From an uncultured Gammaproteobacteria bacterium (GTDB lineage Bacteria; Pseudomonadota; Gammaproteobacteria; CAWCPV01): a stretch of 64,000 bases of DNA. Under the pieces are notes generated by a model. The model was not told where the DNA came from. It saw only the letters and a list, made by a program, of their open reading frames with translations, and did no database searches. The stretch spans positions 32,001-96,000 of the forward strand of contig CAWCPV010000009.1 in NCBI GenBank assembly GCA_963797555.1, written 5' to 3'. Positions 27,439 to 28,590 of this stretch are shown one piece after another (position 1 is the first letter of the stretch; every line of letters starts with the position of its first letter). The position numbers and the translations under genes were made by a program.

Positions 27439-28590
27439 ATGAACGCTAGCATCCGCCGTAACACGAACTTCGACCCCAACCCGGCGACTGTCGCAAATGT
27501 TTACGGTAAAATGCACGTAGACCCTGATACTCCCTTCCAGTGGCATTTGCCTCTAAGTAAATTTGCCTTCCTGGAGCAGTTGCGCCGGGAGGAGCGCCGG
27601 GCAAACCGTTCCAATGGTCATTTGTCCATTGCACTTATTCGTCTTGACAACGAGAGTGCCAGTGATCTCCGTAGCTCCATGGCGATATTAAAGCGTCTCC
27701 AAAACAGCGTGCGAGAGACAGATATTCTTGGCTGTCTCGATAAGGAAGTATTCGGTGTAATACTTCCGGATACGGACGAGAACAGGACACAAGATTTCAA
27801 GAATCGGATCGTTAACGGACACAAGAATCCACCCTTCACCATTATCACCGGGACTTATCCTGGCATGCTCTTTCAGAACCTCTTAACAGAGGACCAAGCT
27901 CGGTCGGAGTTATATCCTCTATTTATGGAAGATCCGCAAAAATGCAAAGGATTTGCCTACTTGTTGAAGAGGAGTCTTGACATCCTGGGTGCCGTCGTCG
28001 GGATACTTCTCTTCTCTCCCCTGATGCTGATTGCAGCTTTGGCGATTAAGATAACTTCTCCAGGGCCGATTATTTTCAGACAAATGCGCTTAGGTCAAAG
28101 GGGTGTGCCGTTCGTATTCTACAAGTTTCGATCCATGTTTGCGAATACGGATGAGCGAATCCACCGAGAGTATGTCAGCCATTTGATCGAAGGAAATCTT
28201 GATCACATTAATCAAGGGGACAAGGAAAAGCCATTGTATAAGATGAAATCTGATCCGAGAATTACGCGAGTTGGTAGGATCATTCGGAAAACGAGTATTG
28301 ATGAGCTTCCGCAGCTTTTCAATGTGCTAAAGGGAGACATGAGTCTGGTGGGGCCGCGGCCGCCCCTTCCTTACGAAGTCGAGAAATATCAGGCCTGGCA
28401 TCTCGCCCGAATATTAGAGATAAAGCCGGGTATTACCGGGCTCTGGCAGGTGGAAGGGCGCAGTGCAACATCGTTCGATGACATGGTGAGGCTCGACATT
28501 CGGTATATTCGGAACTGGTCGCTTATGCTCGACCTAAAAATTCTGCTCAAAACAGTCAGAGTGGTCCTGCAGTCCGCTGGCGCCGTCTAG
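27439..28590 (+). CDS. priming phosphoglycosyl transferase with N-terminal degenerate GGDEF-like domain
   Basis: C-terminal [34 protein letters not shown]-terminal [35 protein letters not shown]. Confidence 0.9.

Follow-up and report, generated by a model that had tools for sequence, protein, structure and literature searches.

Why should the enzyme that begins an exported polysaccharide carry, in the same chain, a dead GGDEF domain with its putative c-di-GMP site preserved? The question is raised by a gene in the 64,000 nt stretch of DNA analysed here (the window; contig CAWCPV010000009.1 positions 32,001-96,000, assembly GCA_963797555.1, from an uncultured Gammaproteobacteria bacterium). 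A preliminary description had read the gene as a priming glycosyltransferase fused to a degenerate GGDEF domain with an RxxD site, and had proposed that c-di-GMP gates the first step of a Wzx/Wzy pathway. The fusion was borne out: one ORF (open reading frame) carries both PF02397 and PF00990 above their cut-offs, and all of the peptides quoted in that description are present in the translation of 27439-28590. The gene and its parts are as follows:

27439..28590, + strand: fused gene, degenerate GGDEF-like domain plus monotopic PGT (phosphoglycosyl transferase), 383 aa (ORF, Pfam and NCBIfam)
27544..27891, + strand: shrunken, catalytically dead GGDEF-fold domain, residues 36-151 (PF00990, AlphaFold and structural matches)
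27589..27609, + strand: E51-x-x-R54-x-x-R57 in helix 1, R57 aligning with WspR R198 (alignment)
27712..27723, + strand: R92-E-T-D95, the primary I-site RxxD motif (present in 83 of 86 fused domains)
27739..27753, + strand: DKEVF, residues 101-105, at the dead GGDEF active-site position (GG[DE]EF in none of 86 fused domains)
27805..27807, + strand: R123, at the arginine of the cyclase 'ERI' helix, partly conserved (alignment to cyclases)
27967..28572, + strand: catalytic domain of the monotopic PGT (residues 177-378), including a membrane helix and the D288-E289 dyad in DELPQ (PF02397)

We analysed the transferase half using profile and structure comparisons. Bac_transf (PF02397) matched residues 177-378 with 233.5 bits against a cut-off of 27, which places the protein in that family; TIGR03025 scored 308.1 bits (cut-off 295.55), and the C-terminal part of the model matched WbaP (8t53, Z 20.9) and PglC (8e37, Z 19.0). 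The membrane helix lies at residues 171-206 in the full-length model, and D288-E289, which we take to be the catalytic Asp-Glu dyad, sits in a DE[LIF]PQ motif found in 24 of the 25 in-frame fused loci (from the best 80 of at least 601 stretches). Neither this protein nor any of those 25 in-frame fusions has a hydrophobic segment ahead of its catalytic domain, and the large-PGT models TIGR03022, TIGR03023 and NF041877 all scored below their cut-offs. The protein is a monotopic PGT with a layout that is neither classical small nor classical large, and it serves to prime the synthesis of an exported polysaccharide. Its reading frame (27439-28590) is intact, and it was the only PF02397 gene found in the host genome, which is 84.6% complete. 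The full-length model had a mean pLDDT of 85.6; the linker at residues ~151-170 was poorly defined (pLDDT 52-58), and the pTM of 0.65 did not fix the orientation between the GGDEF-like domain and the PGT.

For the N-terminal half, residues 36-151 are predicted to form a compact GGDEF fold, because the top structural matches were all of the GGDEF type and Foldseek agreed. PF00990 matched residues 83-130 with 26.4 bits (cut-off 23.8, E 6.7e-06), and TIGR00254 fell below its cut-off. Modelled alone with AlphaFold, the domain had a mean pLDDT of 93.5. Its best match was 6khu (Z 14.7, rmsd 2.6 Å over 116 aligned residues), followed by about Z 12 to active cyclases including PleD and WspR (12.2 to PleD 1w25), 11.2 to PelD 4dmz and 10.3 to BcsE 6ybb. 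The top 37 structural matches (Z of at least 8.9) were GGDEF domains or degenerate relatives such as PelD and BcsE, with the first unrelated structure at Z 8.0, and Foldseek gave a TM score of 0.78 to 6khu. ESM Atlas returned unnamed clusters at 0.90-0.91 and GGDEF-named clusters under 0.9, which serve as leads only. Fold prediction and conservation of RxxD in orthologues were two of the checks that the preliminary description had put forward; the Z scores of 14.7 to 6khu and 12.2 to PleD answer the first in its favour, and the alignment described below (83/86) answers the second in the same way.

To see which residues are kept, 86 domains from 76 fused proteins (50 from the database, including this one, and 26 from loci) were aligned with 20 GGDEF domains of the host. 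The median identity among the fused domains was 28%. RxxD, placed as had been described with R92-E-T-D95 five residues ahead of DKEVF (residues 101-105), was present in 83 of the 86 fused domains, as compared with 17 of the 20 other host GGDEF domains; thus RxxD alone proves little, and its spacing, which the preliminary description had taken as the mark of an I-site, is indeed found here but is not diagnostic by itself. R57 was kept in 80/83 fused domains. The neighbouring E51 (77/80) and R54 (75/82) were much rarer in the host cyclases (4/20 and 6/20 respectively), so that ExxRxxR and RxxD occurred together in 69/80 fused domains as against 1/20 host domains. The combination of R57 and RxxD was found in 13/20 host domains, and since RxxD itself is so common there, part of the conservation of RxxD and R57 may be structural inheritance. 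When the sequences were weighted (45 effective), D95, R57 and R92 were within the five most conserved of 109 columns, with values of 0.93-0.96 against a median column of 0.32. Most family members were found by searching with the domain itself, which biases the set towards shared residues; in the loci picked by transferase patterns (among the best 80), R92 was kept in 26/26, D95 in 26/26 and R57 in 25/25, though the profile that detected the domains in these loci was itself derived from the first search.

The catalytic features showed the opposite pattern. GG[DE]EF was retained in none of the 86 fused domains, an arginine before that position was present in four, and the two aspartates after strand 1 were found in 11/82 and 20/71. 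The span from strand 1 to RxxD was 29 residues in 51 of the fused domains as compared with 37 in all 20 host domains, the GTP-binding loop being approximately eight residues short. An active diguanylate cyclase was ruled out by DKEVF, by the lack of GG[DE]EF in all 86 domains and by this shortened loop, and the domain, its catalytic motifs lost, is predicted no longer to make c-di-GMP. Judging from the alignment, the I-site residues are selectively retained while the cyclase motifs are lost. The position of R123 is presumably the place of PleD R390; it is arginine in this protein, and among the 86 fused domains arginine in 19 and lysine in 40 (59/86 together).

The retained residues correspond to a known two-sided site. 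R57 aligned with R196 of Pseudomonas syringae WspR, which the +2 offset of the RxxD motifs converts into R198 in Pseudomonas aeruginosa numbering. In WspR, R198 is contributed by a second GGDEF domain or subunit and makes the I-site complete, and the R242A and R198A proteins purify without nucleotide (PMC2270323). A retained RxxD does not always report binding: in V. cholerae, only three of 11 RxxD-bearing GGDEF proteins were DRaCALA-positive, in a screen for which false negatives are acknowledged and explained (PMC4624772). On the retained site, we consider that the GGDEF-like domain probably binds c-di-GMP, and it is rather likely, though with less assurance, that it works as a PelD-like receptor in which binding controls the priming step. 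The retained I-site of the dead N-terminal cytoplasmic domain would hold c-di-GMP, most likely as an intercalated dimer; R92/D95 would come from one domain and R57 from another, the arrangement known from WspR and PleD. Two enzyme molecules, or a pair of tandem copies, would thereby become cross-linked, and cross-linking would in turn alter how active the transferase is or how it is coupled to the pathway.

Tandem copies exist in the family: eight of the 76 fused proteins have two or three GGDEF-like copies before the PGT (P0002, P0005, P0006, P0009, P0088, P0094, P0096 and P0099), and therefore bridging within one chain would be possible. Two of the three domains without RxxD are extra tandem copies. 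The GGDEF-like domain occupies the place of the dimerising, regulatory DUF of large PGTs. In WbaP that DUF dimerises and regulates the enzyme (PMC10942596), and EpsZ is activated through dimer stabilization in the EpsW-EpsZ pair (PMC12802240); by analogy with these two cases, control of a PGT from an N-terminal position has precedent. Small PGTs act as monomers (PMC12802240), and because of this cross-linking need not activate. Our guess is that high c-di-GMP more probably activates the enzyme than inhibits it.

Next, we considered how widely the fusion occurs. A GTDB scan by transferase patterns gave at least 601 stretches, of which the best 80 loci were kept; in 25 of these the domain was in frame with the PGT, and in one more (L028) the two were split by a frameshift. 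Chance juxtaposition or an assembly chimera was ruled out by these 25 in-frame fusions in other genomes. The fusion was found, among the best 80 loci, in at least seven phyla (Pseudomonadota, Thermodesulfobacteriota, Acidobacteriota, Dormiibacterota, Myxococcota, Planctomycetota and Spirochaetota), including the named cultured strains Methylobacter tundripaludum SV96 (L013) and Rohdeia mirabilis Pla163 (L073). Seven in-frame stop positions inside alignments are probably flanking or off-frame. Searching exhaustively with residues 31-166 yielded 129 cluster representatives (E ≤ 0.001), many of them contig fragments, and a word-index homologue search returned only four proteins; five rows whose active sites were intact or nearly so were left out of the domain profile. 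In a quickly built tree of PGT domains (82 in all), the 27 with the fusion fell into three groups, with two label changes as compared with ~23 in shuffles, a pattern that would fit either one origin or more than one.

In the host itself the locus seems to have come from elsewhere. The fused gene has 49% G+C in a genome of 64.6%, and the domain was absent from all three PGTs (E ≤ 1e-30) found among 30 relatives; taken together, these two observations suggest that the fusion locus was acquired. A 300-genome sample of the host phylum, with 12 candidates scored per genome, gave no match above 66.5 bits, as compared with 161.5 for this gene.

A second potential point of c-di-GMP control lies at the edges of the locus, where the following features were found:

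1124..1151, + strand: sigma-70-like promoter site, 11/12 matches, at the head of the same-strand run that holds the transferase (consensus match only)
1192..1280, + strand: c-di-GMP-I riboswitch aptamer, probable operon leader (RF03167 69.9 bits, gathering 59; RF01051 69.2 bits)
1762..2670, + strand: tandem array of four 229-bp units lying between the riboswitch and glmS, one ops-like GGCGGTAGCGT per unit (repeat and motif match)
61997..62084, - strand: second c-di-GMP-I riboswitch, before the surface-protein gene below, at the far locus edge (RF01051 83.1 bits)
59836-62016, - strand: fn3/He_PIG/DUF4082 surface-protein gene (domain matches)

The riboswitch at 1192-1280 probably heads the operon, because a promoter-like site precedes it and the ops-like repeats and the gene run follow it; riboswitch and transferase would then share a transcript, over a distance of 26 kb, and the DNA immediately ahead of the fused gene showed no promoter-like site. 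The leader at 1124-2670 (+) combines the sigma-70-like site, the riboswitch and the ops-like units before a 42-kb run of polysaccharide genes. This riboswitch and the conserved R57, neither of them named in the preliminary description, lend the receptor reading further support. The motif GGCGGTAGCGT of the 229-bp units resembles ops; it matched four times against 0.04 expected. In both aptamers of the window the unpaired position before P2 is G, presumably a sign of c-di-GMP rather than cGAMP. Rfam searches found two c-di-GMP-I riboswitches in the window and six in the genome, three of the six at the ends of the locus, and two of these three derive from a tandem duplication. The duplication spans window 59004-64000 and G000:C9:95229-98512 (L099), and comprises the riboswitch, the fn3/He_PIG/DUF4082 gene and a short beta-propeller-like gene. 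Another fused-PGT locus likewise has a riboswitch before a related fn3 gene at its edge (G309:C19:68979-70123). Across genomes, any c-di-GMP-I riboswitch was found in 11/26 with the fusion and 16/50 with unfused PGTs, the filters having differed between the runs, and thus riboswitch presence per genome does not discriminate. A riboswitch lay within 40 kb of the fused gene in only two of the 11 riboswitch-bearing fusion genomes. The reading in full, namely a family of c-di-GMP-gated priming transferases in at least seven phyla, cross-linked through RxxD and a trans-arginine, with two-level control by the riboswitch in the present genome, may in our judgement equally well prove right or wrong.

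Could the domain act without any ligand? Its charged patch (E51, R54, R57, R92 and D95) might dock a partner or hold a dimer, making it a ligand-independent interaction or oligomerization module; a diguanylate cyclase, a glycosyltransferase or the tyrosine kinase could be such a partner, or else a constitutive dimer would replace the DUF of large PGTs. GGDEF domains that dock without c-di-GMP signalling are described for GdpS-DgkB and PdeB-HubP (PMC11962490). A module of this kind would fit with the 25/25 in-frame fusions (among the best 80 loci) without the upstream membrane helices of large PGTs, with the poor conservation of R123, and with E51 and R54, which are more conserved than in the host cyclases and have no ligand role in the literature covered. 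Yet the best-conserved charged residues are the known c-di-GMP contacts, and they are so in seven phyla whose docking partners presumably differ, and the operon has a c-di-GMP riboswitch. We regard this explanation as unlikely.

A little less likely again is that c-di-GMP is bound without gating, serving localization or enrichment of the signal, or that the ligand is a related nucleotide such as cGAMP, GTP or a UMP-type product. BcsE, a degenerate GGDEF receptor, enriches c-di-GMP near its synthase (PMC8892547), HfsK is relocalized by c-di-GMP (PMC5362036), the DUF of WbaP binds uridine nucleotides (PMC10942596), and the linker is flexible in our model. The covalent fusion, however, is kept in three groups of the PGT tree, which is best fitted by direct coupling, and GTP is disfavoured by the shortened GTP-binding loop and the loss of its aspartates. 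The receptor reading, in which c-di-GMP binding acts on the transferase, is the one that we carry forward below.

The surroundings of the gene are those of a polysaccharide locus. The same-strand run that includes it extends from glmS (3371) to 45315 and encodes an OPX exporter, a chain-length determinant, a tyrosine kinase, an ATPase, amino-sugar enzymes, a flippase and glycosyltransferases. Two features bear on the pathway:

5312..9421, + strand: export module of the XrtA/PEP-CTERM type, OPX/Wza, chain-length determinant, tyrosine kinase and ATPase (NCBIfam)
28643..30217, + strand: Wzx-type flippase directly downstream of the fused gene, with approximately four frameshifts (PF01943 and PF13440 pieces; homologues in L014 and L019)

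In the export module TIGR03027 and TIGR03007 were above their cut-offs; TIGR03018 and TIGR03015 were best matches yet below theirs. PGT, flippase, co-polymerase and OPX exporter thus stand together in one locus, the flippase being frameshifted in the assembly, and to this extent the Wzx/Wzy pathway named in the preliminary description was recovered; the polymerase was not, as the Wzy candidate at 35639-36970 had no Pfam or NCBIfam match. A 44% homologue of this candidate adjoins the fusion in L019. Within 10 kb of the 26 fused loci (among the best 80), homologues of window genes were found for the kinase in ten, the co-polymerase in nine, the exporter in six and the flippase in six. Inside the glycan operon, 10231-19230 (+) encodes a very large protein with WD40 propellers, Big_5, DUF4082 and DMFA2_C, split over three frames, and homologous stretches were present in 8/26 fused-PGT loci (among the best 80). 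A split 378/192-aa gene lies in the glycan locus at 37930-39572 (+), its 378-aa frame without a Pfam match, and a secreted-looking asparagine- and glycine-rich protein of 450 aa, also without a Pfam match, is encoded at 45894-47246 (-).

Several genes in window 3371-35620 are frameshifted (glmS, the large WD40 gene, the DegT gene, wzx and asnB). Seven frameshift sites were counted in the 20.5 kb covered in the window, as compared with one in 50.5 kb elsewhere in the genome; no long homopolymers were seen at these sites, and the genome, 84.6% complete, yielded no rpoB to serve as a frameshift control. The frameshifts may reflect assembly error or decay; the fused gene itself is intact, and the argument from the family is independent of this genome. 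That RxxD and the helix-1 arginines are a vestige, kept for folding or by descent with no signalling role in a locus perhaps decaying here, would accord with this density of frameshifts and with the 17/20 ordinary GGDEF domains that have RxxD, but is very improbable given residues kept in more than 90% of domains despite a median identity of 28%, two or three tandem copies in 8/76 proteins and the intact frame of the fused gene itself.

We compared the fusion with known systems. PelD is similar in having a degenerate GGDEF domain with an intact RxxD in an exopolysaccharide system (Z 11.2, rmsd 2.9 Å over 109 residues; PMC8892547). It differs in being a subunit in its own right, a GAF-GGDEF protein anchored in the membrane within a synthase-dependent complex, with proven binding, whereas the fused domain is of ~115 aa, lacks GAF and membrane helices, and sits on the priming transferase of a flippase/co-polymerase locus. 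A PelD orthologue was ruled out, with no N-terminal membrane helices, no GAF match and the gene fused to a PGT. BcsE also has a degenerate GGDEF domain with RxxD (Z 10.3), and holds dimeric c-di-GMP by two motifs (PMC8892547). It is, however, a non-catalytic accessory subunit of the synthase that takes its second motif from a REC domain, and is only 12% identical to the fused domain. The fused domain probably resembles PelD and BcsE in its working and is an orthologue of neither. WspR and PleD share RxxD and a helix-1 arginine supplied by a second domain (R198 and R313 respectively, R57 aligning with R198); they are active, self-inhibiting cyclases, whereas the fusions have lost the active site, and lysine mostly stands in place of the R390-type arginine. 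On the transferase side, PglC, WbaP and EpsZ share the catalytic domain and its Asp-Glu dyad, and the large PGTs have an N-terminal regulatory or dimerising element; in the fusion, a GGDEF-fold domain takes the place of their four membrane helices and DUF. The closest solved structure, PDB 6khu, is a similarly compact 131-residue chain of a Thermotoga maritima 'DGC protein' with 21% identity to the fused domain; it could be used as a template, and no paper was found under its entry code.

The Caulobacter holdfast is made by a Wzx/Wzy pathway. HfsK, an enzyme of this adhesin polysaccharide, binds c-di-GMP directly, as the fused domain may do; it is a modifying enzyme of the N-acetyltransferase family that needs a short C-terminal extension in order to bind, has no GGDEF domain and is not the priming enzyme (PMC5362036). 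Because HfsK is already known as a c-di-GMP effector in holdfast biogenesis, the novelty here lies in the priming step and the covalent fusion. According to a 2025 paper, c-di-GMP control is well known for synthase systems, in agreement with the preliminary description, which had placed the established examples there; post-translational control of Wzx/Wzy pathways is incompletely understood; and the inputs that it gives for monotopic PGTs comprise UMP, tyrosine phosphorylation (CapM) and the response regulator EpsW, with c-di-GMP not among them (PMC12802240). No description of a GGDEF-PGT fusion was found in the literature searched, which did not extend to the PGT-fusion survey of O'Toole et al. 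2021. That survey is cited for regulatory PGT fusions including receiver domains (PMC12802240), and it or its supplements may list the GGDEF-PGT architecture. If the receptor reading holds, c-di-GMP reception in the priming enzyme would link a biofilm signal directly to a Wzx/Wzy pathway. Priming transferases use undecaprenyl phosphate, which is also needed for peptidoglycan synthesis; c-di-GMP would then switch the committed step that consumes this carrier and, in this genome, the operon transcript as well through the riboswitch.

The genomes are equipped for such signalling. The host has approximately 20 other GGDEF domains. Full-length GGDEF domains were found in all 26 fusion genomes (among the best 80 loci) as compared with 32 of the 50 tested (out of 54) with unfused PGTs, a contrast confounded by kinship and incomplete assemblies. 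Five unfused ORFs near a PGT matched the domain profile with 28-52 bits (L015:86-970, L042:3-1148, L044:771-2504, L048:12947-14089 and L074:5695-7167), and these may be ordinary cyclases or free-standing degenerate domains. One further degenerate GGDEF domain of the host, at G000:C5:33762-34214 (-) within a 511-aa frame, keeps RxxD together with a helix-1 glutamate and arginine, and is a candidate c-di-GMP receptor.
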